Position numbers and translations under genes: made by a program. From positions 83,285 through 147,284 of the forward strand of contig JAHFLD010000001.1 in NCBI GenBank assembly GCA_023245035.1: a stretch of 64,000 bases of DNA, read 5' to 3'. Below, piece by piece: positions 26,151 to 64,000 of this stretch (positions are counted from its first letter, which is position 1; the number at the start of each line of letters is the position of its first letter). The notes under the pieces are model-generated. The model was not told the DNA's origin, did no database searches, and saw only the letters and a program-made list of their open reading frames with translations. Source of the stretch: Candidatus Harrisonbacteria bacterium. GTDB lineage: Bacteria; Patescibacteriota; Minisyncoccia; UBA6257; 1-14-0-10-40-38.

Positions 26151-26879
26151 ATGAAACCCGATTATAAAAAAATATTCCTTGTTATCGTTGGCATCGCCGT
26201 CACGGCATTAATTTCGGCGTACGCCGTAACTCAAATCAGGCTCAAACTTATTTTTGGCGATCTGCCACCCTATCGCGGTGAGCGCCTTGAATACATTGGT
26301 CCTGGGGACGAGTTTACAAAAACCCTGCCTAAAGCGGCCGTAGAAAAAAGAACCCAAGAACTCGCCGGTCTTAAAAAGCAAATCTACGCCAATCCAAAAG
26401 ACTACAATCTCTGGATCCAGGCCGGCATTCTCAAAAAGTTCTTTAATAACTACGAAGGTGCCCGCGACGTCTGGGAGTATGCCATTGTCGTTGATCCCAA
26501 AATATCACTGGCCTATTTTAATCTTGGAAATCTCTACGAATACTATCTCAAAGATTTTGCCAAAGCGGAAGCAAATTACCTGAAAGCTGTGGAAATTGAA
26601 GGTCGCGTCGCCGCGCAATATCACATTGCCCTCGCCGATTTTTATGATATTTCCTATGTTGAGAAAAAAAACGAAGTTGAAAAAGTGTTGTTAAATGGAA
26701 TCAACCTAATACCCCACGATGCCAGCCTCAAAGTTCGCCTGTCTGCTTATTACGAAAAGCAAGGCGATGTGCCAAAAGCAATTCAATATTTGAAAGTGGC
26801 TATAATCGACGACCCATCGCTAATTGAGGTTCAGAAAAAACTTCAGAATTTAGAATCTTCTGCTAGCAGGCGAAAATAA
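26151..26879 (+). CDS. membrane-anchored TPR-repeat protein
   Basis: N-terminal TM helix. TPR-like repeats (AYFNLGNLYEYYLKDFAKAEANYLKAVEI). Confidence 0.55.
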   Translation: MKPDYKKIFLVIVGIAVTALISAYAVTQIRLKLIFGDLPPYRGERLEYIGPGDEFTKTLPKAAVEKRTQELAGLKKQIYANPKDYNLWIQAGILKKFFNNYEGARDVWEYAIVVDPKISLAYFNLGNLYEYYLKDFAKAEANYLKAVEIEGRVAAQYHIALADFYDISYVEKKNEVEKVLLNGINLIPHDASLKVRLSAYYEKQGDVPKAIQYLKVAIIDDPSLIEVQKKLQNLESSASRRK

Positions 26880-28045
26880 AGTGTCTGCGTCCTCTGGTAC
26901 ATCTCTTTGAGTGAAAAAGATTGTTCGATCCTCTGCCACAAGGCGTGACCAAGATCTTGCCGCGTCGTAGTATTGTTAGTGAGTTTTATAATTTCCAACG
27001 CGAGCGCCGCTGGATTTTTTGGAGGAACTAAAAGACCGTTCTCGTGGTTGCTGATGATTTCCGGTATGCCGCCGACTCGACTTGCGACAACCGCTCGCCC
27101 AGCTATGCCGGCCTCCAAAAGAAAATAAGGCAATCCTTCCTTTAAAGACGGCATCGCGATTATGTCAAAAGCTCGGAGATGTTTTGAGGCTTCGCTAACA
27201 TAAGGCCTAATAAAAAAACGATCCGCGAGTCTGGCTTCGGTAATTAAGCGAGTTAATAGTTTTTCCTCTGGGCCTCCGCCGAAAATTGCAAAATAAAGAT
27301 TAAATCCAGGGTTCTGCTTAAATACCAAAGCCGCCGCCCCCACTAAATAACGCAGTCCCTTGTTGGCGTAGAAATGAGAAATAGTCCCGACAAGTATCGC
27401 GTTGGGTGGTAAATCTAGTCCCAGTTTTCTGCGAGCCTCTGCCTTGTCTAAAAGAGTCTTTGAATCGGAATCAATGCCGTTGTGAATAGTTTTTAATGCG
27501 CCCCTGTTCGCGATGTGGTATTTTAAAGCCGAAGCTCGATCAAAATCCGAAACGCAAATAATCGCGTCCCTAAAAAATCGAGCCGCGAACTCCAATGGTA
27601 TATAAATCAGTTTTTTCCAAATTCCCGGCTCGTTGAAGGGGAATCCATGCGCGGTGTAAACGCATCTTGCTCGCGAAAAAGCTCGGCGGTTATAAAGATA
27701 GACGCCGTATGGTCCAAAAATTCCGGCATTGGTGCTGTTGAAATGAACCAGGTTTGGGGCTAACTTTTGTAAAAGCTTCTTAAGTTCCAATGAGAAGAGC
27801 AGGTTCTCAAACGGGTTTAAAGAACGGCGCAAATGATTTAAGGTGAAAACCGGAATGCCGTACTCCATAAGCCGGTGAACTAATTCACCCCGATGACGCG
27901 CTCCGCAGACCACGCTTACGCGATAACCCGGCTGGCTAGAAAAATAAACCGCCAAATCAAAGACATAGCGTTGAGCGCCGCCCCAACTCCCCTGGGTAAT
28001 GACATAAACTATGTGGCGAGACTTCTCATTTTTGTCCAAAGGCAT
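26843..28045 (-). CDS. glycosyltransferase family 4 (GT-B)
   Basis: N-terminal donor/acceptor-domain motif (ITQGSWGGAQRYVFDLA) and C-terminal EX7E-type motif (EGLPYFLLEAGIAGRAVVASRVGGIPEII). Confidence 0.85.
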   Translation of the reverse strand: MPLDKNEKSRHIVYVITQGSWGGAQRYVFDLAVYFSSQPGYRVSVVCGARHRGELVHRLMEYGIPVFTLNHLRRSLNPFENLLFSLELKKLLQKLAPNLVHFNSTNAGIFGPYGVYLYNRRAFSRARCVYTAHGFPFNEPGIWKKLIYIPLEFAARFFRDAIICVSDFDRASALKYHIANRGALKTIHNGIDSDSKTLLDKAEARRKLGLDLPPNAILVGTISHFYANKGLRYLVGAAALVFKQNPGFNLYFAIFGGGPEEKLLTRLITEARLADRFFIRPYVSEASKHLRAFDIIAMPSLKEGLPYFLLEAGIAGRAVVASRVGGIPEIISNHENGLLVPPKNPAALALEIIKLTNNTTTRQDLGHALWQRIEQSFSLKEMYQRTQTLYFRLLAEDSKF

Positions 28046-28065
28046 TTAAATAGATAAACCCTATT

Positions 28066-29235
28066 ATGGATCATAAAGTTGCGCGTATCGCGGTTTTTTC
28101 TTTGGCCTATCACCCTTTTGAAGGCGGTGCCGAAATTGCCGCGCGCGAGATCATGACCCGAAATCCAAGCTATGATTTTTGCCTCTTTACTCATCGCTTT
28201 GAATCCTCCTGGGCAACCGAGGAAACCACGGCGGGAATTCAAATCACTCGCCTTGGCCGTGGTCAAAGTCATAAAAGCTACTATGGGCGAACCTTGGAGA
28301 AATGGGGTTATATTTTCCGCGCTTGGCGAAAAGCCGAGCGAGAACATCGCCGTTCGCCCTTTTCTTTAGTTTGGGCGATTATGGCCTCCTATGGCGGTGC
28401 CGCCGCCTGGCTTTTTAAAATTCGCCATCCCAGTATTCCCTTTCTGCTTACCTTGCAAGAAGGAGATGCCGAATCCCATATTTTGCGCCGAGTTGGAATC
28501 TGGCACCCAATCTGGCGGTATATCTTTAAAACCGCCAACCAAATCCAGGCGATTAGTAAATTTCTGGCAGATTTTGCTCGCCGTGAGGGAGCGACTTGTC
28601 CCATTGAGATTATTCCCAACGGCGTGGCTCCCGAAGAGATTAAAATCAATCCGATTCAGGGAAAAAAAGAAAAAATCATTATTACCACCTCGCGCTTGGT
28701 TCACAAGAACGGCATTGATATCGCTCTGCGCGCGCTTGGTTTTCTAGAGAGAAGGGGAATTACCAAGTGGATTTTTTGGATTTTAGGACAAGGACCCGAA
28801 GAGAACGTCCTTATGAAACTGGCTCAGTCCGAGGGGGTAGGAGACAAGGCGATTTTCATGGGCACCGTGCCCCGCGAGACCATCCCCGGATACTTAAGCA
28901 AGGCCGATATTTTTATCCGCCCGTCGCGCTCCGAAGGATTGGGTAACTCATTTCTGGAGGCCATGGCCTCGGGCGTGCCGATTATTGGAACCCCAGTCGG
29001 AGGCATCGTTGATTTTTTGAAAGATGGCATCACCGGCTTGTGCGCCCAAACCGAAAATCCGGAAAGCGTCGCCGAAAAAATCCAGCTTCTCCTCGGGGAT
29101 CAGGCCTTAAGAAAACGCCTGGCCGAAAACGCGGCCAAATTGGTCGCCGAAAAATACACCTGGGATATTATCGCGGCCAGTATGAATGAACTCTTCAAAA
29201 AGTGTTTGGTGTTGTCGAAACAGAAACCAAGATGA
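28066..29235 (+). CDS. glycosyltransferase family 4 (GT-B)
   Basis: C-terminal motif SEGLGNSFLEAMASGVPIIGTPVGGIVDFLKDGITG. Diverges from the previous GT4 gene with only about 20 bp between the start codons. Confidence 0.85.
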   Translation: MDHKVARIAVFSLAYHPFEGGAEIAAREIMTRNPSYDFCLFTHRFESSWATEETTAGIQITRLGRGQSHKSYYGRTLEKWGYIFRAWRKAEREHRRSPFSLVWAIMASYGGAAAWLFKIRHPSIPFLLTLQEGDAESHILRRVGIWHPIWRYIFKTANQIQAISKFLADFARREGATCPIEIIPNGVAPEEIKINPIQGKKEKIIITTSRLVHKNGIDIALRALGFLERRGITKWIFWILGQGPEENVLMKLAQSEGVGDKAIFMGTVPRETIPGYLSKADIFIRPSRSEGLGNSFLEAMASGVPIIGTPVGGIVDFLKDGITGLCAQTENPESVAEKIQLLLGDQALRKRLAENAAKLVAEKYTWDIIAASMNELFKKCLVLSKQKPR

Positions 29236-29241: not shown

Positions 29242-29853
29242 CTACTTTCGCGCCAAAACATAGAATCCGGCAGTTGTTGTTCTCTGTTTAGTTTTCAACA
29301 AAAGATCCAGACTTTGAGCGATAAAATTCAATAATGGTCGCATTCGGTGTTGGAACGGAACAAAAAAAGACAGGGCCAAAAAATATCCTCCGCGTTTCCG
29401 GACTTCGACCGAAGAAAAATCACGACATAACTCATTAATGGTATCATTGAAAAAACGCCAATAATCACCATAATGCCCGAGACGCGCGTGGTATGGATAT
29501 AGTGAAGGAACATAAAAGAAAAGAATCCCACCGGGTCGGAGAATTCGCTTGATTTCCGAAAAAGCCCGCAGTGGGTCGGGAATGTGCTCTAAAACCGAAC
29601 TGCACAAAATAGCGTCAGCCGAAGCATCTTCAAGCGGGATGTCGCTGACACTCCCTAGAATATCGGGGTGCGTTGTTGGGTCAGAGTCAAGTGTCCGATA
29701 AGTTTTTCCCTTAAAAAGAGCTTCATATGGCGCGAGCCACTTGGTAAATCTTTCGCCGCCGCCGACATCGATTATGTTTTTTTCTTGGGCCACTTGGCGG
29801 ACGGCATGTTCAATGAAGTTTTTTGAAGATTCTTGAGTGAGTGATAGTCTCAT
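29242..29853 (-). CDS. class I SAM-dependent methyltransferase
   Basis: Motif I (IIDVGGGE) and post-I/II features (ILCSSVLEHIPDPLRAFSEIKRILRPGGILFFYVPS). Confidence 0.8.
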   Translation of the reverse strand: MRLSLTQESSKNFIEHAVRQVAQEKNIIDVGGGERFTKWLAPYEALFKGKTYRTLDSDPTTHPDILGSVSDIPLEDASADAILCSSVLEHIPDPLRAFSEIKRILRPGGILFFYVPSLYPYHARLGHYGDYWRFFNDTINELCRDFSSVEVRKRGGYFLALSFFVPFQHRMRPLLNFIAQSLDLLLKTKQRTTTAGFYVLARK

Positions 29854-30026: not shown

Positions 30027-31217
30027 ATGAATAATTCACAACAAGAATCAGCAATGAGAATCTGCATGGTAACGACAATTTTCCCTCCGGCGCTCGGTGG
30101 GCCGGCCACGCAGTGTTTCAATCTCTGTACTGCCTTGCGTGATCGAGGGCTTGTCCCCGTCGTTGTTACTTATGGTGAACGCTTTACTCACATCAAGCCA
30201 AATGGCTATTCGGTTTACTCCTTTCGGGAAAGTTACGGATTTGGGCCAATAGATAGGTTATTGCGCTGGCTTATTTTCCCTTGGTATATCGGCGCCATTT
30301 TCCGTCGGGAAAAAATTGATATTCTCCACTGTCACAGCGTTAACATGCTATCGTTCATTGCGGCGATGGTGGGCAAAGCGATGGGCATTCCCCGAATAGT
30401 GAAATTCGCCGGCGATTGGGTTTGGGAAACTCTTTCAACGCGCAGAGTACGTGGCAAAAATTTCGCGGAAGTCTATAGATCATCTTGGTATAGTCGTTTC
30501 TTGGCGGTTTTAGAGAGAAGGGGAATTCGCCTTTTTGATTTAATCTGGGCGCCCTCAAAATCCCGGCGGAGAGAAGTCGAATTTTTAGTCGGTCAAGATC
30601 CGCCAAGTATAATTATTCCCAACTGCTTGCTTTTCCAAGATTCGCCCGGTACTAATCTGCGCGACCCAGAAAAAATTATTATTGTTTCAGCTAATCGCTT
30701 CATCCCTCACAAGCGGATACCTTGGATCGTGGAGCTATATGCCAAAATCAAAAGCCCCAAAACATGCTTAGTATTGATCGGTGACGGCACAGAAACTGCG
30801 GTGGTCAAAGAAACAATAGAGCGATACCGACTTGAAGATTCGGTAATCTGTACCGGCAGATTATCTTCAGAGGCAGTCTATGAACAATTCAAGAAAGCCT
30901 CCATATACATATCGGCCTCACTCGACGAAGGCTTGCCAAATGTTTTCATTGAAGCCATGCATTACGGCTTGCCGATCGTCACCACCAATGTCGGTGGCTC
31001 CGGGGAAATGGTCAAAAACGGGGAAAATGGCTTCGTTCTGCCGCCGGACAATCAAGAAGCATTCGTCAGCGCCGTGAGAAAACTAATTAACGACCCCGAT
31101 CTGCGTCTTGAAATGAGCATGGCCTCCACGGAGATCTCAAAAAACTACGATCTCCAAACACGAGTCGAAGAATTCATAGCTATGTACAAAAATCTGTCAG
31201 TGAAAAAAAGTGGATAA
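30027..31217 (+). CDS. glycosyltransferase family 4 (GT-B)
   Basis: LDEGLPNVFIEAMHYGLPIVTTNVGGSGEMVKNGENGFVL. An alternative start at the internal Met (MRICMVTT) is possible. Confidence 0.85.
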   Translation: MNNSQQESAMRICMVTTIFPPALGGPATQCFNLCTALRDRGLVPVVVTYGERFTHIKPNGYSVYSFRESYGFGPIDRLLRWLIFPWYIGAIFRREKIDILHCHSVNMLSFIAAMVGKAMGIPRIVKFAGDWVWETLSTRRVRGKNFAEVYRSSWYSRFLAVLERRGIRLFDLIWAPSKSRRREVEFLVGQDPPSIIIPNCLLFQDSPGTNLRDPEKIIIVSANRFIPHKRIPWIVELYAKIKSPKTCLVLIGDGTETAVVKETIERYRLEDSVICTGRLSSEAVYEQFKKASIYISASLDEGLPNVFIEAMHYGLPIVTTNVGGSGEMVKNGENGFVLPPDNQEAFVSAVRKLINDPDLRLEMSMASTEISKNYDLQTRVEEFIAMYKNLSVKKSG

Positions 31218-31248: not shown

Positions 31249-32583
31249 ATGTGGCTCAAGATCGTTTTTAAGATTTTGCTACTCCCGATAGTTTTGGGTA
31301 GTATGTTATCCACCTCTGCCGAAGCGGCCGTGCCCCTGATTGATCGTGGAATGGTTCCCGGCAACGGCGATCAGGAAACCGCCGGCGAGGTTAGTGTTTG
31401 GCAAGAATATTTGATCCAAGGCGGTTATCTTAAAATCAACCAGCCAACCGGAATTTTTGGCGGACTAACGGGCCTAGCAACCGAACTCTGGCAAAAAGAT
31501 CACGACATCACGCCAACTTCTCCGTCTGTCGGACCGCGCGTGCGGGCCAAATTAAAAGAACTCGCGGAAACCGCGGTTAAGTCGCCGACACCGATCCAAC
31601 CAACATCACAGGTCTCCTCCGTTATCGGGTCTCCGACGCTGACAGATGGTCAAATTGTCCCGCTGACGCCATGTTTTGAGCGCCGGGTTCCTGAAATCTA
31701 CGCCACTATTGGCGAGGCGATTCGCGCCGCCTGTGCCAATGATCTAGTCTTAATCGGACCCGGCACCTACGAAGAAAGTATTATTAACATCACCCAGCCA
31801 GTTGTCATTCTGGGAGTTCAAGGGCGGGACAAGACGATTATTCGCGCCACCCGCGGACCGGCCTTATTGATTTCAGCTCCGATTTCCGGGGTCGTAATTG
31901 ATGGTCTCACTCTAATTGGTGCCACCAATCAACCCGCTGCTCTCGTTAATGTATCGCCTCGTCTCCTTACGCCAACCATTGCCTTAACGATCAAAAATTC
32001 TTCCCTAAAGAATTCCGAAATCGGATTGAGTGTTAGCGCGCCTGCCGGCGAAGTTGATGTTGAACGGACCATCATCGCCGAGAATCGGACTGATGGCGTT
32101 TCCGACAACTTCGGCGGAATAATTACCTTGGTCAACAACACCATCGCGCAAAACGATACCGGATATTCTTTGCAGAACCTCGGTGGTCATCACGTTCTTA
32201 CCAATAACATCATTGTCCAAAACAAAACCGACGGAGTCGCGGTGAGTTATCTGGGCAAAGAAACCACTCTGGATATGAATTACAACAACGTCGCCAATAA
32301 CGATAAGAACAATTACTACACCTATCGCGACGCGGCGGTTTTTGTTCCGCGGGGTTTGGTCAATCTAAGTTATAACCCGGGGTTTGTGTCTCAAAATGAC
32401 TATCGCTTAATTTCAACTTCAAAACTTATTGATGCCGGCGATCCCAAAACTCCGCTCGACGAGGATGGGACTCGAGCGGATATTGGGGCCTTGGCTTTTG
32501 ATCAGCGCCAGCTAAAAAGTGGCGCCAGTCTCTTGGTGAGTGTCGGAAAACTTCTCTCGCCGATAATTAGTTGGATGTGGTAG
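31249..32583 (+). CDS. secreted protein with an N-terminal peptidoglycan-binding-like domain and a right-handed parallel beta-helix (PbH1) repeat region
   Basis: Signal peptide. A PG_binding_1-like segment (VSVWQEYLIQGGYLKINQPTGIFGGLTGLATELWQ). Repeated beta-helix rungs (TNNIIVQNKTDGVAV / NNTIAQNDTGYSL / ERTIIAENRTDGVS). Confidence 0.65.
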   Translation: MWLKIVFKILLLPIVLGSMLSTSAEAAVPLIDRGMVPGNGDQETAGEVSVWQEYLIQGGYLKINQPTGIFGGLTGLATELWQKDHDITPTSPSVGPRVRAKLKELAETAVKSPTPIQPTSQVSSVIGSPTLTDGQIVPLTPCFERRVPEIYATIGEAIRAACANDLVLIGPGTYEESIINITQPVVILGVQGRDKTIIRATRGPALLISAPISGVVIDGLTLIGATNQPAALVNVSPRLLTPTIALTIKNSSLKNSEIGLSVSAPAGEVDVERTIIAENRTDGVSDNFGGIITLVNNTIAQNDTGYSLQNLGGHHVLTNNIIVQNKTDGVAVSYLGKETTLDMNYNNVANNDKNNYYTYRDAAVFVPRGLVNLSYNPGFVSQNDYRLISTSKLIDAGDPKTPLDEDGTRADIGALAFDQRQLKSGASLLVSVGKLLSPIISWMW

Positions 32584-32603: not shown

Positions 32604-33731
32604 ATGAAAATTTTGATGCTGGGCACGGACAGCCGTGCCTTTGTTGCTGATTCGGAAACTTACCGGCGGTTTGCCGAATATTCCGAGTTGGGTCAGGAAT
32701 TGCACGGCCTAATATATGTCGGCCCAAAAAAAGATTTTGGCCTGGTTAAACCCGCCCCGAATGTCGTCTTGCATTCAATCGCTTGCGGCCGTCTAAACTA
32801 TTTTTTACGAGCCTATCGCGAAGCTGCAAAAATACTCTCCACTGACGCTTCTTCGGAGTGGGTCATTACCGCGCAGGATGTCTTTGAAACCGGGCTCGTG
32901 GCTACGGCGCTCGCCTGGCGCTTCAAGATCCCGCTCCAACTTCAGATTCATACTGACTTTTTAAGCCCATATTTCCGCCGTGAATCAATCAAAAACCGGA
33001 TCCGTGCCGGCTATGGAATTTTTTTGGCTCGTCGCGCGCGCGGTCTGCGCGTGGTAAGTTCTCGAATCAAAGATTCGCTGGTTAATCGCGGCATCGCCCC
33101 CGACAAAATCCATATTCTGCCGATTATGAGTCGGCGAACGGAATCCAAAACCAAAACATCTCCAGCGAATATTGCCGAATTACGCGGTAATCACGATTAC
33201 GTTTTTTTAATCGCCTCCCGTCTCTCGCGCGAAAAAAACATCAGTCTTGCCATTCGGGCTTTAAGTGCCGCGGTTTTTGAAAAAAATCCAGCAAAACGCA
33301 ACCCGCTTCTGTTGATAGTTGGCTCCGGTCCCGAAGAAGAAAATCTACGTGCTACCGCCTCTCATTACGGTCTTCAAAAACATTGCCGCTTTGCACCCTG
33401 GGTTGATGATTTAAGTCTCTACTACTCCGCCGCCGATGTTATGCTTTTGACCTCTAACTACGAAGGCTACGGCCGAACCATTATCGAAGCTCTGGAAGCC
33501 AATCGTCCGGTCATCGCAACCGACGTTGGCATCGCGCGTGAAAATATCGTAACTGGCGAGAATGGATATATTATCCCAGTGGGAGACGCTAAAGCGCTAA
33601 CCGAGGCCATGTTGCTCGCCTTTCATCGCAAAGCCCAATGGAAGATAGGGCGTGGCAAGCGCTATGAACCATTTGCCAGTCGCGCCGACTATCTGCTTCA
33701 ATATAAAAACAGCTTAAACGCGCTGTTCTGA
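32604..33731 (+). CDS. glycosyltransferase family 4 (GT-B)
   Basis: YEGYGRTIIEALEANRPVIATDVGIARENIVTGENGYII. Confidence 0.8.
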   Translation: MKILMLGTDSRAFVADSETYRRFAEYSELGQELHGLIYVGPKKDFGLVKPAPNVVLHSIACGRLNYFLRAYREAAKILSTDASSEWVITAQDVFETGLVATALAWRFKIPLQLQIHTDFLSPYFRRESIKNRIRAGYGIFLARRARGLRVVSSRIKDSLVNRGIAPDKIHILPIMSRRTESKTKTSPANIAELRGNHDYVFLIASRLSREKNISLAIRALSAAVFEKNPAKRNPLLLIVGSGPEEENLRATASHYGLQKHCRFAPWVDDLSLYYSAADVMLLTSNYEGYGRTIIEALEANRPVIATDVGIARENIVTGENGYIIPVGDAKALTEAMLLAFHRKAQWKIGRGKRYEPFASRADYLLQYKNSLNALF

Positions 33732-35273: not shown

Positions 35274-35912
35274 ATGAGTTTGAAGGCAATACTCATCGAC
35301 CTCGGCAATGTGCTTGTTTTCTTTGACCGACATAGGGTCGTCGAGCATTTCGCGTCCATCACCGGAATGTCGGCAGATGTGATAAATTTCCATCTAAACA
35401 AAAGCGCCGACGGTCAGGCAAGGCTAGCGGCCTTTGAAGAGGGCAGAATAGGACAAGACGAGTTTCAAACTTTGACGCAACGAGTGTTGGGGCAATCTTT
35501 TCCAATTAAACTTTTCTGGGCCATGCACGCCGATCTGTTTAGTGCCAACTATCCGGTTATCAACCTCTTGCATCGCGTTAGTTCTCTGTATCCGGATGTA
35601 AGACTTCTGGCAGTAACAAATACCGACGAAGTTCGCCTGGAGCGAATGCTCCTGCTCGCCGGAATACGTTTTCATGAAGTAATCGCCAGTTGCCATGTCG
35701 GCAGTAAAAAACCCGATCCAAGGATTTACCAAGCGGCGATCAAACGCGCCGGTGTCCCAGAACAAGACTGCCTCTTCGTTGATGATGTTCCGGAAAATTG
35801 CGTCGCCGCCGAAAAAAATTGCATTCCAAGTCACCATTACCAGACTCTCGCGGGTCTGGAGGGCGCCCTTGGCGAACGAGGACTAAATCTCAAAAAAGGA
35901 GAAAATTCGTGA
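35274..35912 (+). CDS. HAD-superfamily hydrolase (phosphatase-like)
   Basis: Motif I (ILIDLGNVL), motif III/IV (GSKKPDPRIY ... LFVDDVPEN). Confidence 0.7.
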   Translation: MSLKAILIDLGNVLVFFDRHRVVEHFASITGMSADVINFHLNKSADGQARLAAFEEGRIGQDEFQTLTQRVLGQSFPIKLFWAMHADLFSANYPVINLLHRVSSLYPDVRLLAVTNTDEVRLERMLLLAGIRFHEVIASCHVGSKKPDPRIYQAAIKRAGVPEQDCLFVDDVPENCVAAEKNCIPSHHYQTLAGLEGALGERGLNLKKGENS

Positions 35913-57351: not shown

Positions 57352-58620
57352 CTAACGCCAAACGAGAGGTAATTTTCTGATCAATCCATTTTCCACGAAC
57401 TTATCCAGATAGTCTTTGACCACGGAAAATTCCATTCCTAATTCCTCGGCAATCTCAAAAACACTCTGCCGGCCCTCAAGTCGCAACATAATTTGCTCCA
57501 GAAATTGGTTGAGTTTTTTATTATTCCGCCAGTCTACCCAAAGACCATATCGCGAAAGGAAAACCGGTCCTTTAAAAAGACGCTGCGGAACATAGTCTTC
57601 TTCAATCACGCGCAGCACGGCCAAAACCAAATCGCGTGAAGCCACAAGACGTTCCTCGGTGATAATCGCCGGAGTATCGTCGCTAGTGTGATATTCGGGG
57701 TAATGAGGAAATCCGGGCTTGGCCCGGCTAAGTGAGATCATCGGTACATCCACGCCCGGTCCATTGAAAGCCATTTCATCGTTGCCGACTATGGAGCGAA
57801 ATGGTCCGATAATATGATTCGGCGCTTGGGTTGCAAGAACTGCTTGTGCCACTCGATCAAGATAAGTCTTTCCCTGAAGAGTGTGTTGCAAAGCGAAGGG
57901 CTGGTTATTGCCGAGCATCTCCAAAAAGATTCCCGCCTTAAAACCCGGAACCAATTTTTCGTTTTGACTCAAGTAAGCAATGGAACCGATAGTCTCTGGA
58001 ACGAACAGAAGGCGATAAGTAAAATGCGGTTTTTTAACGGCGAGCTCCTTCGCTAGATCAACCAAAACCGCCACGCCCGAAAGATCGTCATTGGCTTGTC
58101 CCGGGTGGCAAAGGTGGGCCACTAGAGCAATCGTCTCCTCTGTTTTGCCCTTAATCAGACATTCGCCAACGCTTAAGTTGCTTGGCTCAAAAGATGAGTC
58201 AATTAGCACGCGATATTCCGATTCAGTGAATTGAGGCAACTTTTCATGTTGTAAGCAAAATCCCCAATCGCGCTCATAATATTTAAACTCATAAGGTATG
58301 GCGTTCGGGCGATCCGGTCGAGTATGGATATGTGTCAAAAGTTCTTCACGAGACACAACGCGGTTGATCGGCAAGGAATATGAAATCACGTGCAGTGGAT
58401 GATCTTTCAAATCAAGCAACTTCTGACCGGATGTGGTTGCGATATAAGCCTCGCGCACACTCCAGCGTTCCGGAACTTTCCAAGTCCAGCATTCGGTTCC
58501 GCTGGAGTAGCGCAGAATCTTAAGCGGAATTTGCCGGCCGATGTATTCCAAAGCTTCATCAAAACCAGCTGAAACCAAGTCGCGCCGCTTTAGATATAAG
58601 TCCTCAATTAGTTGTTTCAT
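57352..58620 (-). CDS. M28-peptidase-like (DUF2172/DUF4910-type aminopeptidase-like domain) protein with a C-terminal winged-helix domain
   Basis: Zn-ligand-like motifs of the M28 fold (HLCHPG, NDDLSG, VPETIG, YHTSDD). C-terminal wHTH-like segment (VFEIAEELGMEFSVVKDYLDKFVENGLIRK). Start uncertain, placed at the internal Met so as not to overlap the divergent formyltransferase. Confidence 0.6.
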   Translation of the reverse strand: MKQLIEDLYLKRRDLVSAGFDEALEYIGRQIPLKILRYSSGTECWTWKVPERWSVREAYIATTSGQKLLDLKDHPLHVISYSLPINRVVSREELLTHIHTRPDRPNAIPYEFKYYERDWGFCLQHEKLPQFTESEYRVLIDSSFEPSNLSVGECLIKGKTEETIALVAHLCHPGQANDDLSGVAVLVDLAKELAVKKPHFTYRLLFVPETIGSIAYLSQNEKLVPGFKAGIFLEMLGNNQPFALQHTLQGKTYLDRVAQAVLATQAPNHIIGPFRSIVGNDEMAFNGPGVDVPMISLSRAKPGFPHYPEYHTSDDTPAIITEERLVASRDLVLAVLRVIEEDYVPQRLFKGPVFLSRYGLWVDWRNNKKLNQFLEQIMLRLEGRQSVFEIAEELGMEFSVVKDYLDKFVENGLIRKLPLVWR

Positions 58621-58714
58621 TTCCTTGATGTAACTATACGCATCTGACCAAGCGTTAACAATAGAACCCGCGATTGGGTCTATGAAGTTTGTACCTTTAC
58701 AATCGGAGATCTCC

Positions 58715-59428
58715 ATGAAAATTGCCCTCCTCATGACCGAAGAAAACATTGTCGGTCGAGAGATTCTACTGCACGCTTTGAAAGCCGAACCAGCCGTGAA
58801 AATAGGTCTAGTGATCGTTGAAATAGGTGAACGAGCCAACAAAGAAAAGGTCTACCTCAGAAATGACTTTCACAATCCGCCAACTTTTGCAGAAGCGCTC
58901 AACTTGCTCCGAAAGAAAAACGCAGCGGCAGATCATACGACGATAGTGGTTCAAACCGGAAATCTGAACAACGACGCCGTCGCTCGTTGCTTGCTGGAAT
59001 ATAGCCCAGATTTGATCTTGTTGGACGGATCCACGATCATCAAGAAAAAAATTTTTGAAACGGCGAGGATTGGCGCGGTTAACTCTCACCCGGGTCTTCT
59101 GCCAAAGTATCGTGGTGTTGATTCAGTTCGCTGGGCGATATATCACGGCGATCCAGTCGGAACCACCTGCCATCTGGTAAATGATGGCATTGATACTGGC
59201 CCCATTCTTCTAATGGAAGAAGTGCCCTACGAAAAAGGAATGTCGCTGCTAGAGATTCGTGTCAGCGCAATGATCGCCGGTGTTCGTCTGATGATTGATG
59301 CCGTACAAAGACTGGCAGATGGAGTGTTGTCTCCTAAATCGCAATCCAACGAAGGTGCCAACTACTTTTCCTGGGCTCCAGTAGAAGTTCAAAATGCTGT
59401 TGAAGCCAAGCTATCAGTGAACACCTAA
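58715..59428 (+). CDS. formyltransferase-family protein (Fmt/PurN/ArnA-N-like; candidate sugar N-formyltransferase)
   Basis: Formyl_trans_N signature (VNSHPGLLPKYRGVDSVRWAIYHGDPVGTTCHLVNDGIDTGPIL). Start placed at the internal Met (MKIALLMTE). Confidence 0.8.
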   Translation: MKIALLMTEENIVGREILLHALKAEPAVKIGLVIVEIGERANKEKVYLRNDFHNPPTFAEALNLLRKKNAAADHTTIVVQTGNLNNDAVARCLLEYSPDLILLDGSTIIKKKIFETARIGAVNSHPGLLPKYRGVDSVRWAIYHGDPVGTTCHLVNDGIDTGPILLMEEVPYEKGMSLLEIRVSAMIAGVRLMIDAVQRLADGVLSPKSQSNEGANYFSWAPVEVQNAVEAKLSVNT

Positions 59429-59534: not shown

Positions 59535-60614
59535 ATGAAACTAACCAAAAAAATCATTATCGCCGCCCATGATGCCGGCGGCATGGACTCACTCATACCG
59601 GTTATCGGTAAATTATTTCAAGATTCGTCCTACGAAGTCACTTGTCTGGTACACGGCCCGGCCAAAAAATTATTGGATCAGCGCCAGTATCGCTATGCTG
59701 ATGCCGACACCTTAAGCGACGCCGAACTTGAAATGTTGGTTGTGGATGTCGCACCCGATGTAATTCTAACCGGAACAAGTAGCGGCCTGACCATTGAAAA
59801 GAAGCTTCTCAAAATCGCTCAAGCCAAAAAAATTCCCACCGTCGCCATTATTGATTTTTGGATTAACTACAATCTCCAATTTAGTTTTGCCGCGAAAGGC
59901 AAAGCCAAAGCAGTCGACCTACCCGATTTAATTTTGGTCATGGATGATCTAGCTAAGCGCGAAATGATTGCCGAAGGATTTCCGGAAGAGAAAATTGTCA
60001 TCACCGGCAACCCTCATTTTGAAAGTTTCAAAATATTCCCCCCGCCGCCGGTGGAAAATCAGAACATCGTTTTTATTGATCAGGGTTTTTCCGGTCTCTA
60101 TCACGAGGGGTTCCACGAAAATATGGGTTTTGACGAAATCGAAGTCATGCGTGATTTAATCCGCGCGCTTTCGGAAATGGGCTTCGCTGGAAAAGTTATA
60201 GTCAAATTTCATCCCGCCACTCAAAACCGCGCCAAATATGATGCCCTAGTAAAACCGACTTCAATTAAAATTGAACTGGACAGCAAAGACACCCTCGAAA
60301 AATCTTTAGCCGAAAGCCGACTGGTAGTTGGTATGACCTCCATGGCGCTTTTCGAAGCGGCGCTTGGCGGTAAGATTGTTATCAGTTATCAACCCCATCC
60401 CGCCCGACTGCCTGATCCGCTTATCAGCAATCGACTTGGCCTTTCTCATTTCGCCTACAATTACGGCGACTTCAAAAAAATATTAACCAAAACATTATTG
60501 GGCAAAGCCAAACAAGAAATTAATCAATCACTCATTGACCAATACACCAAAAACCACGCCACCCTAAAAGTGATTGAAGAAATCGAAAAACTTATCGCCG
60601 TAAAGAAAGATTAG
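59535..60614 (+). CDS. GT-B-fold enzyme (PseG/MurG-like UDP-sugar hydrolase or glycosyltransferase)
   Basis: N-terminal Rossmann strand (KKIIIAAHDAGGMDSLI). C-terminal GT-B nucleotide-binding-like segment (MTSMALFEAALGGKIVISYQP). Position between the formyltransferase and a cytidylyltransferase. Start uncertain (GTG 59478, ATG 59502 or ATG 59535). Confidence 0.45.
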   Translation: MKLTKKIIIAAHDAGGMDSLIPVIGKLFQDSSYEVTCLVHGPAKKLLDQRQYRYADADTLSDAELEMLVVDVAPDVILTGTSSGLTIEKKLLKIAQAKKIPTVAIIDFWINYNLQFSFAAKGKAKAVDLPDLILVMDDLAKREMIAEGFPEEKIVITGNPHFESFKIFPPPPVENQNIVFIDQGFSGLYHEGFHENMGFDEIEVMRDLIRALSEMGFAGKVIVKFHPATQNRAKYDALVKPTSIKIELDSKDTLEKSLAESRLVVGMTSMALFEAALGGKIVISYQPHPARLPDPLISNRLGLSHFAYNYGDFKKILTKTLLGKAKQEINQSLIDQYTKNHATLKVIEEIEKLIAVKKD

Positions 60615-60652: not shown

Positions 60653-61399
60653 ATGCCAAATATCGTCTGCATTATCCAAGCTCGCAGTGGTTCTACCCGC
60701 TTGCCGAATAAGGTATTCTTACAGCTCCAAGGTAAAGCCATTCTGCTTCGCGTGATTGATCGTGTGCTGGAGTCAAAACGAATCAATCAAATTGTTGTGG
60801 CAACAACCGTAAAACCAAACGATGAAAAAATCGTTGACCTCGTCAAAAATTATAATCCCAAAGTAAGTGTGACCCGTGGTTCCGAAGAAGACGTTCTTGA
60901 TCGCTATTACCAGGCGGCCAAGGGAGTAAGCGCCGACATCGTCGTTCGCGTTACCTCCGACAACCCCTGTCTTGATCCCGAGGTAATGGATCAGGCGATC
61001 GAACTTTTTTTGAGCGATCCAAAAATGGATTATGTCTCCAACAACATCGGCGAACACACCTATCCCCGCGGACTTGATATCGAAGTCATCCGCTTTTCAA
61101 CTCTCGAGAGTCTTTGGAAAACGACAACCGAACCAATTGACCGCGAGCACGTGACCATTCACCTTAAGCGCTTTCCGGATCACTACGTTTGGAAAACACT
61201 CAAAAACAGCGAAGACCTCTCTGTCTATCGTTTCACCGTAGACGAAGATGTTGACTACAAACTAGTCGAACAAGTCTACAATGAACTCTTTCCTCAAAAT
61301 CCCAACTTTCGCCTCAAGGATATTATTGCCTTGATGCGGAACCGTCCCGAACTCGCAAAAATCAATCAACAAGTTGAGCAACAAAACAAAAAATACTAA
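60653..61399 (+). CDS. acylneuraminate/nonulosonate cytidylyltransferase family (SpsF/PseF-like)
   Basis: IVCIIQARSGSTRLPNKVFLQLQGKAIL matches the CTP_transf_3 N-terminus. Confidence 0.75.
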   Translation: MPNIVCIIQARSGSTRLPNKVFLQLQGKAILLRVIDRVLESKRINQIVVATTVKPNDEKIVDLVKNYNPKVSVTRGSEEDVLDRYYQAAKGVSADIVVRVTSDNPCLDPEVMDQAIELFLSDPKMDYVSNNIGEHTYPRGLDIEVIRFSTLESLWKTTTEPIDREHVTIHLKRFPDHYVWKTLKNSEDLSVYRFTVDEDVDYKLVEQVYNELFPQNPNFRLKDIIALMRNRPELAKINQQVEQQNKKY

Positions 61400-61450: not shown

Positions 61451-62785
61451 ATGACTAAACGAGATAAGCTAGCTCTTCTAGGCGGCAATCCGACTCTAAA
61501 GAAATCGGTTTCTGCCTACAATACCATCGGTTCAGAGGAAAAAGCCGCCGCGTTGCGGGTCATGAACAGCAAAAACCTCTCAGGTTTTTTGGGCCGCGCC
61601 GGCGATCGCTTTCGCGGCGGTCCGGAGGTTCGCGCCTTTGAAGAAAATTTTGAAAAAAAATTTGGCGTTAAGCACGCCATAAGCTTTAACTCCGCCACTA
61701 CCGCCCTCCAGGCCGCCGTTGGCGCGCTCGGTATCGGTCCCGGTGACGAAGTTATTACCACGCCGATGACGATGCCGGCCACAGCCACAGCTGTTCTGTT
61801 TAACGGCGCCGTTCCGGTTTTTGCGGATATAAATGAAAAAAATTATTGCCTTGACCCGCAGTCGGTGGCCAAAAAAATAAACTCTCGCACCAAGGCGATT
61901 TTTGTTGTTAATCTCTTTGGCACTCCGGCTGATTACGATGCCTTGCGCCTCATCGCCAAGCGCCACAATCTCAAAATTATTGAAGACAACGCCCAAGCGG
62001 CCGGCGCCAAATACAAAGGGCGGTTTGCGGGAACGATCGGGGATATTGGCGTTTGGAGTTTTAACGTCCACAAGATTATCCAATCTGGCGAAGGCGGTAT
62101 GCTCACTACGAACGATGATGGCTATGCCTACCGAGCCGAACTGATTCGTAATCATGGCGAAGCAGTCGTAGATGATATCTGGGAGACTAAGCCGGAGGAG
62201 CGGGAACTTGTCGCGGGAAGTAATTTTCGGCTAAGCGAACTTCACGCGGCGATTATGGGCGCCCAGCTGGCCAAGTTAGATGATCTAATTGCGAGTAGAA
62301 TTCATCTCGCGGCCTATCTGACAAAAAAAATAAAAGCGTCTGGCATAAAATGGTTGATTCCATTTGAATTAGTCAAAGGCGCTGTCAGTGCTCATTATCT
62401 TTATCCATTGCGCCTGCAAACTAAAATTATCGGTCTCCAGCGCGCAACTATCGCCAAGGCGCTGGCCGCTGAAGGTTTTACTTTGCAAGAAGGCTATCAA
62501 AAGCCGCTCTATCTGATGCCGATTTTCCAAGCCAAGAGAATCTTCCCCCGAACTCAATTTCCTTTTATCTCTCGCGAATTTCCTCACCCGAATCTAGATT
62601 ACAAACCCGGGTTGTGTCCGGTAGCTGAGCGTCTTTATGGGGAAGAGCTGGTAATGTCGAAATTGTGCCAACCGCCTCACACCACCCAACACATTGATGC
62701 TTTTATGGAAGCTATCAAGAAAATATCCGCTAACGCCGGCGAACTGAAGAAGTGGGAAACGGCGCAAAAGATCGCCAACCCTTAA
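61451..62785 (+). CDS. DegT/DnrJ/EryC1/StrS-family PLP-dependent sugar aminotransferase (PseC/LegC-like)
   Basis: PLP-lysine region (SFNVHKIIQSGEGGMLTT) and overall family conservation. 444 aa. Confidence 0.85.
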   Translation: MTKRDKLALLGGNPTLKKSVSAYNTIGSEEKAAALRVMNSKNLSGFLGRAGDRFRGGPEVRAFEENFEKKFGVKHAISFNSATTALQAAVGALGIGPGDEVITTPMTMPATATAVLFNGAVPVFADINEKNYCLDPQSVAKKINSRTKAIFVVNLFGTPADYDALRLIAKRHNLKIIEDNAQAAGAKYKGRFAGTIGDIGVWSFNVHKIIQSGEGGMLTTNDDGYAYRAELIRNHGEAVVDDIWETKPEERELVAGSNFRLSELHAAIMGAQLAKLDDLIASRIHLAAYLTKKIKASGIKWLIPFELVKGAVSAHYLYPLRLQTKIIGLQRATIAKALAAEGFTLQEGYQKPLYLMPIFQAKRIFPRTQFPFISREFPHPNLDYKPGLCPVAERLYGEELVMSKLCQPPHTTQHIDAFMEAIKKISANAGELKKWETAQKIANP

Positions 62786-62806
62786 ATTTTTTTGAGTAAA
62801 ATATCT

Positions 62807-64000
62807 ATGCTAGAAATTAATCTTGGCCCAATCAAAATCGGCAAAAATCATCCCTGTTTTATCGTGGCCGAAGCCGGAGCTAATCACGATGGGGATTTTA
62901 ATAAGGCCAAACAGCTTGTTGATGCCGCCGCCGAGACCAAGGCCAGCGCCATAAAATTTCAGCATTACACCGCCGGCAAACTCGCCTCCAAAGAAGCCAA
63001 GCGTTATTGGTTTGTTCACGGCGACGCCCAAGGCTATCAATTCGACCCCAATACCTACAAAGAATCTCAAATTGAAACCTTTAACAAAATTGACGGCATC
63101 CCGCGCGACAAAGACGCCGAACTCATCGCCTACGCCACAAAAAAAGGAATCGCTACCTTCTCCACGCCTTTTGATTTTGAATCGGTTGATCATTTGGACT
63201 CCCTTGGTACCCCGATGTTCAAAATCGCCTCCGGCGATCTGACCTATCACGATTTCTTGCGTTATGTATCCAGCAAGGGTAAGCCGGTCATTTTATCAAC
63301 CGGCGCCGCTACCATGGAAGAAATTCACGCCGCGGTGCGCGTTATCAAATCCACCGGCAATAATCAAATCATTCTTTTGCACTGCACCTTGGCCTATCCG
63401 ACCCCGTTGGAACACGCCAATCTCCGCATGATGAAAAACCTGGAGCAGGAATTTCCCGACTGTCTAATTGGCCTTTCCGATCACACGCCGGGAGTTGAAG
63501 CCGACGTAGCCGCCGCCATGCTGGGCGCGGTCATGATTGAAAAACATTTCACGCATACCCCGGGTCATGCGGCGGGGGACGATAAGGTCGGCGACAGCCC
63601 CGATCACGATATTGGCATCGGTAAAAAAGAATTTACCGAACTTGTCCGGCGCGTCCGGGAGAACGAGTCCAAAAAAATCGGCGTCGCCTTTGGCTTGAGC
63701 TACCAAGCAGCGGTAGCCAAAATTGAGCAAGGAAAATTTCCTCAAGTTCTAGGTTCGTCTGCGTCTAAAGATATTGATTCCAAAGTTGAACTCAAAGCCC
63801 GAGCCCAAGCTCGTCGTAGTGTCGTCGCGGGGCGAATGATTAAAGGCGGTACCGTTATTACTCAAGTCATGCTCGGCGACGGTACCTTTGTAGTTAAGCG
63901 TCCGGGTACAGGCATCCCTCCTTACGCGATATCCACCCTTATTGGCAAGGTAATTAAAAACGATGTAACCGCCGACACGGTTCTAATCAGCGACCACTTC
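62807..64000 (+). CDS. NeuB-family nonulosonic acid synthase (sialic/pseudaminic/legionaminic acid synthase-like), 3' end beyond the window
   Basis: NeuB signature (IGKNHPCFIVAEAGANHDGD, FSTPFDFESVDHLDSLG, LLHCTLAYPTP, GLSDHTPG) and the start of a C-terminal SAF domain. No stop codon within the window. Confidence 0.85.
   Translation, partial: MLEINLGPIKIGKNHPCFIVAEAGANHDGDFNKAKQLVDAAAETKASAIKFQHYTAGKLASKEAKRYWFVHGDAQGYQFDPNTYKESQIETFNKIDGIPRDKDAELIAYATKKGIATFSTPFDFESVDHLDSLGTPMFKIASGDLTYHDFLRYVSSKGKPVILSTGAATMEEIHAAVRVIKSTGNNQIILLHCTLAYPTPLEHANLRMMKNLEQEFPDCLIGLSDHTPGVEADVAAAMLGAVMIEKHFTHTPGHAAGDDKVGDSPDHDIGIGKKEFTELVRRVRENESKKIGVAFGLSYQAAVAKIEQGKFPQVLGSSASKDIDSKVELKARAQARRSVVAGRMIKGGTVITQVMLGDGTFVVKRPGTGIPPYAISTLIGKVIKNDVTADTVLISDHF

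Follow-up and report, generated by a model that had tools for sequence, protein, structure and literature searches.

A 53.8-kb glycan locus beside the gene of an S-layer-like protein in a probable Parcubacteria-type bacterium

The DNA analyzed here comprises 64,000 nucleotides of contig JAHFLD010000001.1 (positions 83,285 to 147,284) and is referred to as the window. From position 26843 onwards it carries a dense run of glycan biosynthesis genes, located downstream of the gene for a large secreted surface protein. The run continues past the window end to form a locus of 53.8 kb and 47 genes, which also encodes a Wzx-type flippase and a Wzy_C protein fused to tetratricopeptide repeats (TPR). 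The gene for a WbaP-type phosphoglycosyltransferase (PGT) lies 7 kb beyond the last glycan gene. We favor, with a probability of roughly 0.45, a surface glycan system that works through a lipid carrier, includes additional GT2/GT-C modules for decoration and probably glycosylates the adjacent S-layer-like protein.

The locus continues past the window end

The window open reading frames (ORFs) of at least 100 aa were all annotated with Pfam, as a preliminary description of this stretch had proposed, and selected ones were checked with NCBIfam. Transmembrane (TM) segments of the window proteins were located by a hydropathy scan, and an Rfam scan of the window gave no match. The flanks were read from ENA metagenome contig ERZ27280176:k141_2769979 (183,344 bp), which was entered via the DegT protein encoded at 61451-62785 and is identical to the window across all 12,550 overlapping bases. 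Positions beyond the window end are read from this contig and given as window-equivalent positions. The contig stretch examined extends from window-equivalent -9.8 to +90.6 kb, about 100 kb in total.

Glycan genes run unbroken on the contig to window-equivalent 80629. The window thus covers the first two thirds of the locus and ends mid-cluster, with 13 more glycan genes following. All genes from 26843 to 80629 are glycan-related or plausible accessory genes (NUDIX, DUF4910, DUF218), with no housekeeping interruption. The genes past the window end are given below in window-equivalent positions; the last two lie outside the run.

64010-64621: DUF218 protein
64611-65414: second CMP-sugar synthetase
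65500-66510: GFO/IDH/MocA oxidoreductase 1
66695-68251: B12 radical SAM enzyme 2
68431-69042: second GNAT
69039-71086: GFO/IDH/MocA oxidoreductases 2 and 3
71092-72951: AsnB-type amidotransferase
72956-74308: 450-aa protein, putative nonulosonic acid transferase (partial match to the BFO_1060 glycosyltransferase family)
74289-75536: Wzx-type flippase, 415 aa (Polysacc_synt 61.4 bits, gathering cut-off 28.2; about 8 TM)
75550-76497: methyltransferase
76568-78847: Wzy_C + TPR protein, 759 aa (Wzy_C 71.1 bits, cut-off 31.7; 12 TM)
78854-80629, minus strand: GT-C3 (PMT_2 120.4 bits, above the gathering score)
86317-87627: second MOP flippase, 436 aa (Polysacc_synt 142 bits; NCBIfam Wzx_EPS above MurJ)
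87719-89050: Bac_transf PGT, WbaP-type, 443 aa (Bac_transf 207.9 bits; TIGR03025 345.3 bits, above the cut-off of 295.55)

The Wzx gene is located 10.3 kb past the window end, the Wzy_C-TPR gene 12.6 kb and the PGT gene 23.7 kb. GT-C3 is followed by genes for two small secreted proteins, one of which (340 aa) has two PG_binding_1 domains, and then by dnaG and rpoD. The PGT and the second flippase are encoded on the opposite strand, and we infer that both belong to this glycan pathway.

The preliminary description had put the cluster at about 37 kb and had proposed a system devoid of Wzx, Wzy, Wzz, PGT and ABC exporter. Pfam indeed finds none of these domains encoded in 26843-64000. This apparent absence of Wzx, Wzy and PGT arises because the window ends mid-cluster: Wzx and Wzy_C-TPR are encoded in the same run past the window end and the PGT further on, and the proposal of a system lacking all three has to be abandoned. 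An absence claim is unsafe for a cluster that runs off the edge of a window. A Wzy or PGT hidden among the unannotated ORFs of 26843-64000 was also considered and ruled out, the hydropathy scan revealing no unexplained polytopic protein there. The sole multi-TM ORF lacking annotation is the 7-TM protein at 20240-21019, upstream of that segment.

Other export and attachment functions were sought in the same 100 kb. No Wzz or polysaccharide co-polymerase (PCP) chain-length regulator (Wzz, GNVR, CpsD-type) was found in the window or on the contig stretch, and neither was a Wzm/Wzt-type ABC exporter (ABC_tran, ABC2_membrane), a LytR_cpsA_psr (LCP) ligase, or any pilin, flagellin, Maf or teichoic-acid synthesis gene. 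Small flippases of the GtrA or EamA type gave no match.

A conserved core and a variable extension

Judged by its gene content and order, the locus is a lineage-conserved core tied to the surface-protein gene, followed by a variable, O-antigen-like extension. The core is made of four GT4 enzymes, a soluble GT2, GT-C1, WecB, a membrane GT2, an LPG_synthase_TM protein and GT-C2. The glycan genes inside the window are as follows.

26843..28045, minus strand: GT4 a, conserved core (Glycos_transf_1 and Glyco_transf_4)
28066..29235, plus strand: GT4 b, conserved core (Pfam GT4; fused to the next GT4 in relatives)
29242..29853, minus strand: SAM-dependent methyltransferase (Methyltransf_11, Methyltransf_23)
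30027..31217, plus strand: GT4 c (Pfam GT4)
31249..32583, plus strand: secreted right-handed beta-helix protein (Beta_helix 37 bits; N-terminal TM/signal segment; weak PG-binding match)
32604..33731, plus strand: GT4 d, conserved core (Pfam GT4; orthologs 34-44% identical)
33739..34446, plus strand: small soluble GT2, 235 aa, conserved core (Glycos_transf_2 114 bits)
34451..35194, plus strand: metallo-beta-lactamase-fold hydrolase (Lactamase_B_2)
35274..35912, plus strand: HAD phosphatase (Hydrolase/HAD_2)
36391..37293, plus strand: GalU-type UTP-glucose-1-phosphate uridylyltransferase (NTP_transferase; TIGR01099 galU 237.6 bits, below the cut-off of 326.8)
37354..37962, plus strand: NUDIX hydrolase 1 (Pfam)
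38116..39639, minus strand: B12-binding radical SAM enzyme 1, class B methyltransferase-like (Radical_SAM and B12-binding)
39721..41415, plus strand: GT-C1, GT-C fold membrane glycosyltransferase with a C-terminal soluble domain, conserved core (fold by structure comparison)
41422..42522, plus strand: WecB UDP-GlcNAc 2-epimerase, conserved core (Epimerase_2 352.7 bits; orthologs in L024, L027 and L028)
42519..43475, plus strand: membrane-anchored GT2, ArnC/AglJ-like, of the polyprenyl-phosphate sugar synthase type, conserved core (Glycos_transf_2 104 bits)
43479..44474, plus strand: LPG_synthase_TM flippase-like protein, conserved core (PF03706 122.7 bits; TIGR00374 67.5 bits, above the cut-off of 43.2)
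44434..45795, plus strand: GT-C2, PMT_2/PMT type, conserved core (PMT_2 51 bits and PMT 36.5 bits, both above gathering cut-offs)
45800..46966, plus strand: GT4 e (Pfam GT4)
46924..48063, plus strand: GT4 f (Pfam GT4)
48140..49114, plus strand: Gmd, GDP-mannose 4,6-dehydratase (GDP_Man_Dehyd 440.7 bits)
49120..50454, plus strand: NDP-sugar C-methyltransferase (Methyltransf_14, Methyltransf_13, Methyltransf_23)
50451..51002, minus strand: NUDIX hydrolase 2 (Pfam)
51050..51574, plus strand: NUDIX hydrolase 3 (Pfam)
51826..52626, plus strand: GNAT N-acyltransferase (Pfam)
52701..53843, plus strand: GT4 g (Pfam GT4)
53897..55093, plus strand: DegT-family sugar aminotransferase 1 (DegT_DnrJ_EryC1 430 bits)
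55086..56261, plus strand: GT4 h (Pfam GT4; start from the contig gene call)
56280..57350, plus strand: short-chain dehydrogenase/reductase, NDP-sugar dehydratase or epimerase (GDP_Man_Dehyd, Epimerase, Polysacc_synt_2)
57352..58716, minus strand: DUF4910/DUF2172/M28-like protein (Pfam)
58733..59428, plus strand: formyltransferase (Formyl_trans_N)
59535..60614, plus strand: GT-B-like protein (weak Epimerase_2, 26.7 bits, below cut-off; weak BFO_1060/surf_polysacc)
60653..61399, plus strand: CMP-sugar (nonulosonic acid) cytidylyltransferase 1 (CTP_transf_3 119 bits)
61451..62785, plus strand: DegT-family sugar aminotransferase 2 (Pfam)
62807..64000, plus strand: NeuB-family nonulosonic acid synthase (NeuB 250 bits; the contig gene encodes 399 aa and ends 6 nt past the window)

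Pfam and NCBIfam recover the GT2s, GT-Cs, nucleotide-sugar genes and NeuB module that the preliminary description had listed. Its count of at least nine GT4 enzymes was too high: Pfam recognizes eight, and the ninth candidate is the GT-B-like ORF 59535-60614 with its weak Epimerase_2 and BFO_1060 matches, which might represent a NeuC/PseG-like step of the nonulosonic acid pathway.

Gene neighborhoods were compared in four relatives, whose surface-protein homologs are 41-53% identical. Their loci were viewed about 10 kb either side of the query gene, and only two of them were read further downstream, a Harrisonbacteria contig (L027) and GCA_030689595.1 (L028 and L029). The order surface protein, TPR protein, GT4 is kept in all four relatives, the TPR gene always separating the surface-protein gene from the GT4 genes. 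For the two relatives with a longer stretch read, the order is surface protein, TPR, a GT4 on the minus strand, a GT4 that is often a double-GT4 fusion, a GT4, the small GT2, in some cases the B12 radical SAM enzyme, and GT-C1, and then WecB, the membrane GT2, LPG_synthase_TM, GT-C2 and a GT4. This conserved order corresponds to 22.3-46 kb of the window, where the window adds methyltransferase, metallo-beta-lactamase, HAD, GalU and NUDIX genes. Orthologs of GT4 a are 33-36% identical and occupy the same place and strand in L025 and L026, and those of GT4 b are 41-56% identical in L024-L026. The LPG_synthase_TM gene is found at the same position in L027 and L028.

The polyprenyl-phosphate-sugar-like modules noticed in the preliminary description are real, and can be likened to ArnC/ArnT, AglJ, PpgS and Pgf. 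The small GT2, which shares 65% identity with its L025 ortholog, matches AglJ, ArnC, Dol-P-hexose transferase and PpgS best in NCBIfam, with every score below cut-off. The best NCBIfam matches of the membrane GT2 (318-335 aa, with two C-terminal TM segments) are ArnC and AglJ, also below cut-off. Against ArnC, AglJ, PpgS and Dol-P-hexose transferase, both GT2s score 49-108 bits, where the equivalog cut-offs are 325-529. The LPG_synthase_TM protein is predicted to flip the polyprenyl-phosphate sugar. In structure, GT-C1 stands no further from the oligosaccharyltransferases AglB, STT3 and PglB than from ArnT or PMT. Its acidic motif after TM1 is GDEY, with D39 and E40 invariant in the family alignment. 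GT-C2 has VDARAYD (VDAxxYD) at this place, a motif that its two orthologs keep, and GT-C3, judged from a single sequence, has NDEAAIAF. PDB sequence searches with GT-C1 and GT-C2 gave no match.

Downstream content varies between genomes. The glycan genes of GCA_030689595.1 run for at least 50 kb and include a heptose-type pathway, AsnB, NeuB, a CMP-synthetase, a 450-aa transferase and a phosphoenolpyruvate (PEP) mutase; the NeuB/AsnB/450-aa-transferase block is also positioned downstream of the same core in this genome. In relative L026, a Polysacc_synt-like flippase gene and a Glyphos_transf-like gene directly follow the core GT4 genes. In the locus studied here, the variable part would make two unusual nucleotide sugars, a GDP-6-deoxyhexose carrying C-methyl, amino and N-acyl modifications and a heavily modified nonulosonic acid, the sugar identities being predicted. 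It also comprises more GT4s, the BFO_1060-like putative transferase, Wzx, a methyltransferase, Wzy_C-TPR and GT-C3.

The GC content is 0.435-0.468 across window positions 44000-50000, against about 0.49-0.50 in the flanks. The core ends and the variable sugar-pathway genes begin in this segment, with values of 0.435-0.44 at the start of the extension, and the dip fits a horizontal exchange of the distal block. The GCA_030689595.1 locus also harbors a fusion of tetrahydrofolate dehydrogenase/cyclohydrolase with a GT4 beside a serine hydroxymethyltransferase gene (L028 4077-5987), and a UbiA prenyltransferase gene beside GT-C genes (L028 17265-18101). Its PEP mutase (phosphonate) gene is located at L029 19800-21431. 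In the Harrisonbacteria relative, a gene for a 1701-aa giant protein follows the glycan cluster (L027 20253-21695). The chemistry of glycan loci in the Candidate Phyla Radiation (CPR) appears to be very diverse.

Several accessory genes of the locus were also considered. The two B12-binding (class B) radical SAM enzymes, the second at window-equivalent 66695-68251, stand in one glycan locus. The best NCBIfam matches of the first are PhpK and HpnJ, below cut-off. It has a 57% identical ortholog in L025 and is kept beside the small GT2 and GT-C1 in relatives. Its chemistry might be sugar C-methylation, and a CPR bacterium with so reduced a genome would be unlikely to make cobalamin itself. The secreted beta-helix protein (31249..32583), whose position is occupied by a 451-aa protein in L025 and L027, is possibly a glycan-modifying or glycan-cleaving enzyme. 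The GalU ORF opens at 36250, with a likely ATG at 36391. Between the HAD and GalU genes is an unannotated ORF (35798-36304) with no Pfam match. Its N-terminal part overlaps the HAD gene, is extremely basic and is probably not real; the C-terminal 108 aa or so, starting from an internal Met, may be a small real protein.

The Wzy_C-TPR protein resembles an O-antigen ligase

We performed a PDB search with the membrane part of the Wzy_C-TPR protein, as a full-length query was swamped by TPR matches. A single sequence match was obtained, to the O-antigen ligase WaaL (7tpg, E 3e-4, 330 aligned residues). The WaaL residues R191, R265 and H313, which we take to be those described as catalytic in the WaaL structure paper, align to identical residues in Wzy_C-TPR. 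Relative to its L002 ortholog (L002 is contig CAYIWJ010000009.1), Wzy_C-TPR is 83% identical, compared with 61% for Wzx and 38% for the putative nonulosonic acid transferase. A conservation far above that of the glycan-specific neighbors is expected of a glycan-tolerant ligase and not of a repeat-unit-specific polymerase. By these comparisons the protein looks ligase-like, of the WaaL type. Together with the lack of a chain-length regulator on the contig stretch, a ligase-like character would be compatible with transfer to a protein or a similar acceptor. TPR domains, for their part, typically bind proteins.

A second Wzy_C membrane protein, of 445 aa, is encoded on the left-flank contig stretch (L022 6645-7982, window-equivalent about -3131 to -1794), about 30 kb from the glycan locus. 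A PDB sequence search with this protein gave no match. One possible role is that of a polymerase working with the ligase-like Wzy_C-TPR protein.

The surface protein and its neighbor

Two genes precede the glycan locus.

22332..25997, plus strand: secreted surface protein, 1221 aa, S-layer-like, candidate glycan acceptor (PG_binding_1, signal anchor)
26151..26879, plus strand: membrane-anchored TPR protein (TPR matches; one N-terminal TM segment)

The 1221-aa protein contains 23.6% Ser+Thr, against 9-15% in its neighbors, and only 12% charged residues. Its PG-binding domain is followed by a Pro-Thr linker, TPTPTPTP. The AlphaFold2 model (pLDDT 82.7) comprises an N-terminal helix, the PG-binding domain and about nine Ig-like beta-sandwich domains. 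Foldseek comparison of this model returned generic Ig-like arrays (PrgB, macroglobulin MG domains and the S-layer protein SbsC), all with TM-scores of 0.22 or less. The model fits an S-layer-like or adhesin-like protein, its fold not being diagnostic of a particular S-layer family. The protein family numbers 1009 clusters, and the best 120 listed are nearly all full-length and 40-90% identical. Orthologs of the TPR protein are found in L024, L025 and L026, and a TPR gene occupies the same position in L028.

The preliminary description had linked the glycan genes to this surface protein. The gene order shared by the four relatives bears out the link, and we infer the glycosylation itself. An apparent S-layer has been observed on Parcubacteria cells by cryo-EM (10.1101/2022.04.20.488981). 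Our literature search found no paper naming the genes of a Parcubacteria S-layer. Cytoplasmic glycosylation of the GtfA/GtfB type, as for serine-rich-repeat proteins, was set aside, as the window encodes no SecA2/SecY2 and the signal peptide of the surface protein is ordinary.

Proposed pathway and its alternatives

In the reading that we favor, the WbaP-type PGT would prime undecaprenyl phosphate. The GT4 enzymes and other transferases would then assemble an oligosaccharide on the cytoplasmic face, ending in the modified nonulosonic acid. This oligosaccharide would be flipped by Wzx and moved en bloc by Wzy_C-TPR to its acceptor, most probably Ser/Thr residues of the adjacent surface protein. 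In parallel, the two GT2s would load single sugars, for instance a HexNAc provided via WecB, onto polyprenyl phosphate, and the flippase-like LPG_synthase_TM protein would carry these polyprenyl-phosphate sugars outward. On the outer side of the membrane, the three GT-Cs would finally attach the sugars either to the glycan or to the protein itself. The Ser/Thr-rich composition of the surface protein, its Pro-Thr linker and the lack of Wzz/PCP in the 100 kb examined speak for this pathway. So do the recurrence of the core beside the surface-protein gene in the four relatives, the ligase-like features of Wzy_C-TPR and the Tannerella-like composition of the distal block.

Several points weigh against it. 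The conserved synteny also spans upstream housekeeping genes, from FtsK to ClpB, and the adjacency of surface-protein and GT4 genes could thus be inherited gene order and not a functional link. S-layer genes adjoining cell-wall-polymer loci are known in Firmicutes (C. difficile, Bacillus). The protein acceptor is a prediction from gene content, and LCP ligases, Wzz or other PGTs may be encoded elsewhere in the genome, the stretch examined covering about 100 kb. The PG-binding genes and dnaG-rpoD separate the PGT and the second flippase from the locus. Finally, no PglL_A match was found, and the Wzy_C sequence cannot reliably separate polymerase, ligase and O-oligosaccharyltransferase.

The same pathway may make a cell-wall glycopolymer, resembling a secondary cell-wall polymer, or a capsule, attached to peptidoglycan or lipid. 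The position of the surface-protein gene would then reflect co-inheritance of envelope components, or the polymer would help to hold or organize the protein layer. We consider this possible but somewhat unlikely. The gene set includes a canonical PGT and two MOP flippases, and its two Wzy_C proteins (the 759-aa one with TPR and the 445-aa one) could provide both a polymerase and a ligase. Three secreted proteins with PG_binding_1 domains are encoded in or beside the locus (22332-25997, the weak match at 31249-32583, and the 340-aa protein after GT-C3) and suggest a wall-associated function. The reach of the housekeeping synteny well past the glycan genes weakens any inference from adjacency, and the Firmicutes precedents point the same way. 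However, the 100 kb of contig show neither an LCP ligase nor a Wzz/PCP co-polymerase. The WaaL-type residues of Wzy_C-TPR, and its conservation much above that of the adjacent glycan-specific transferase, also argue against this possibility, as does the anchoring of the surface protein via a PG-binding domain and not a known polymer-binding module (SLH, CWB2).

A further possibility, which narrows the proposal of the preliminary description to the core, is that the conserved core works by itself, glycosylating the surface protein from polyprenyl-monophosphate donors without Wzx, Wzy or PGT, and that the distal block is a separate system. In neither the Harrisonbacteria contig nor GCA_030689595.1 do the roughly 10 kb that follow GT-C1 contain a Wzx, Wzy or PGT gene. 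Both GT2s score best against polyprenyl-monophosphate sugar synthases, GT-C1 has its structural proximity to AglB, STT3 and PglB, and the GC dip at 46-50 kb coincides with the start of the variable part. Yet the four cytoplasmic GT4s need a lipid-linked or other acceptor, for which the nearest plausible primer is the Bac_transf PGT. The flippase-like and Glyphos_transf-like genes after the core GT4s of L026 suggest one functional unit, and core and distal genes form one uninterrupted, mostly co-directional array. With the relatives viewed about 10 kb either side of the query, a Wzx or PGT may also lie further along. We regard such an independent core as improbable.

A more specific form of this idea is an Agl-like S-layer system of Parcubacteria, in which a GT2 would prime polyprenyl monophosphate, the GT4s extend the chain, LPG_synthase_TM flip it and GT-C1 transfer it en bloc, the distal block again making a separate glycan that varies between strains. 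If true, it would identify a CPR S-layer protein together with a bacterial polyprenyl-monophosphate oligosaccharide pathway operating without PGT, Wzx or Wzy. This form is decidedly improbable.

Nonulosonic acids are classic modifications of flagellin and pilin, and their pathways, when they include AsnB-type amidotransferases and formyltransferases, typify the glycosylation islands of these two proteins. Decoration of pili, glycolipids or lipoteichoic-acid-like polymers, the last recalling the triads of GT2, flippase and GT-C that modify teichoic acids in Firmicutes (cited in 10.1101/2024.05.05.592596), is the least probable explanation, for the 100 kb examined hold no pilin, flagellin, Maf or teichoic-acid gene and the surface-protein gene is the only conserved structural gene beside the locus.

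Upstream region and lineage placement

The first 21 kb of the window (positions 1-21 kb) are housekeeping by Pfam, with genes for an ECF sigma factor, RNase Y, RecA, FtsK, a split phosphoglucomutase, HtrA and ClpB. The ClpB protein is 74-75% identical to those of a Harrisonbacteria contig and a Parcubacteria-group contig, both of which keep much of the upstream order FtsK, exonuclease, RNaseH-like, aminotransferase, HtrA, ClpB. Those homologs of the surface protein, AsnB and GT-C1 that carry names all come from CPR bacteria (Harrisonbacteria, Sungbacteria, Pacebacteria and other Parcubacteria). The organism is therefore probably a Parcubacteria-type CPR bacterium (Patescibacteria), as judged from housekeeping identity, synteny and these homologs.

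The closest GTDB representative for AsnB is L002, which is syntenic and has 79% identity. This contig is labeled uncultured Candidatus Saccharibacteria. Its glycan genes follow the order of those on the source contig and mostly share 57-85% identity with them (range 37-85%). A Saccharibacteria origin of the window was set aside on the housekeeping identity, synteny and named homologs. Either the L002 label is loose, or the distal glycan block may have been exchanged between CPR lineages.

Two genes are located between ClpB and the surface-protein gene.

20240..21019, plus strand: 7-TM membrane protein (7 TM by hydropathy), a conserved neighbor in this position
21140..21784, plus strand: HTH (DeoR-like) protein (HTH_DeoR match), directly upstream of the surface-protein gene

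The 7-TM protein has no Pfam or NCBIfam match. A gene of 239-249 aa, also with no Pfam match, occupies its position in L025 and L026, and no sequence similarity was detected between the 7-TM protein and these positional counterparts. L025 and L026 each carry an ortholog of the HTH protein in the corresponding place, with 33-34% identity. The two proteins might serve in regulation or export of the surface protein.

Three other features of the upstream region were observed. The phosphoglucomutase/phosphomannomutase is split into ORFs 8820-9245 and 9242-10123, which lie in different frames and share 4 nt (ATGA). The first ORF encodes domain I and the second domains II-IV, and the contig gene calls agree. 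The gene may be genuinely split or a pseudogene caused by a frameshift, or the assembly may be wrong here. Between HtrA and ClpB (15569-17554) lies the gene for a 661-aa protein that has a signal/TM segment at its N-terminus and no Pfam match; it was not found at the same position in the relatives examined. Finally, a 304-aa RVT_1 reverse transcriptase is encoded directly upstream of the ECF sigma factor gene (L022 8732-9646, window-equivalent about -1044 to -130). Around it, L022 4000-12500 showed no direct repeat of the template/variable type, giving no evidence of a diversity-generating retroelement.

Comparison with known systems

CPR bacteria (Patescibacteria) are ultra-small and many are episymbiotic, with genomes of roughly 1 Mb and a surface that forms the interface with hosts and phages. 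A locus of about 54 kb would represent roughly 5% of a 1-Mb genome, a size taken from one relative with a 1.03-Mb contig. If the surface-protein link is functional, the locus provides a concrete candidate for a Parcubacteria surface-layer glycoprotein and its glycosylation machinery. The glycan would then be chemically rich, with C-methyl and N-formyl or N-acyl sugars and a modified nonulosonic acid. Our literature search found nothing relevant on CPR nonulosonic acids or on this locus, and no paper describing this combination.

The closest parallel is with S-layer O-glycosylation clusters. The slg clusters of Geobacillus and Paenibacillus include the PGT WsaP and the Wzy_C-type O-oligosaccharyltransferase WsaB. 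The 27-kb S-layer O-glycosylation cluster of Tannerella forsythia contains wzx, Pse/Leg genes, asnB, wecB, methyltransferases and the 445-aa nonulosonic acid transferase GtfS (PMC6120980), and the distal block described here appears very close to it in composition. As in such clusters, the present locus is tied to a Ser/Thr-rich surface-layer-type protein and encodes Wzx, a nonulosonic acid pathway, AsnB, WecB, methyltransferases and a putative transferase of about 450 aa resembling BFO_1060/GtfS, with a WbaP-type PGT and a Wzy_C candidate transferase. It differs in being about twice as large and in residing in a monoderm-type CPR bacterium with a genome of about 1 Mb. Here Wzy_C is fused to TPR, the PGT is outside the cluster, and the surface protein is a candidate glycoprotein. 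The two GT2s, the LPG_synthase_TM protein and the three GT-Cs are additions.

These added modules resemble the three-component systems GtrA/B/V, ArnC/ArnEF/ArnT, CsbB/GtcA/YfhO, the mycobacterial Ppm1/Pmt and PpgS/Rv3779, and the streptococcal Pgf and GtrB/PgtC2 in their ArnC/AglJ/PpgS-like GT2s, their membrane flippase candidate and the acidic motif in the first outer loop of the GT-Cs. Streptococcal Pgf and GtrB/PgtC2 glycosylate Ser/Thr-rich surface proteins by outer-face steps (10.1101/2024.05.05.592596). The Pgf system (PgfS/PgfE/PgfM1/PgfM2, acting on Cnm-family adhesins) shares further features with the locus, namely an embedded epimerase (WecB here, PgfE there) and an adjacent Ser/Thr-rich surface protein. 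Unlike in the three-component systems, the flippase candidate is an MprF-type LPG_synthase_TM protein and not GtrA or ArnEF, the GT-Cs are PMT_2/GT39-GT83-like and not YfhO, and the modules are embedded in a larger Wzx/Wzy_C locus. All equivalog cut-offs are missed, so orthology with the named enzymes does not hold.

With Wzx/Wzy O-antigen and capsule loci, the locus shares a Bac_transf PGT, a MOP flippase, a Wzy_C protein, many GT4s, nucleotide-sugar genes and a low-GC variable region. Unlike these loci, it has no Wzz/Wzc in the 100 kb examined, a detached PGT, a ligase-like Wzy_C protein with TPR, and no lipid A-core or outer membrane for ligation. The Agl N-glycosylation system of Haloferax volcanii, comprising AglJ, further glycosyltransferases, AglB and AglD/AglR/AglS, targets an S-layer protein and adds the final sugar from polyprenyl phosphate via a GT-C. 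AglJ is the best or second-best NCBIfam match for both GT2s, and GT-C1 is structurally near AglB. The analogy is speculative, as the organism is a bacterium, the AglJ scores are far below the equivalog cut-offs, and a PGT and Wzx are nearby.

All components of the locus thus come from known families, with the strict membership tests for the named equivalogs failing. What sets the locus apart is the combination of two kinds of systems, the share of a CPR genome that it occupies, its flippase candidate of the MprF type, the conserved link with a very large Parcubacteria surface-protein family, and a TPR-fused WaaL-like protein in an organism that should have no lipopolysaccharide.

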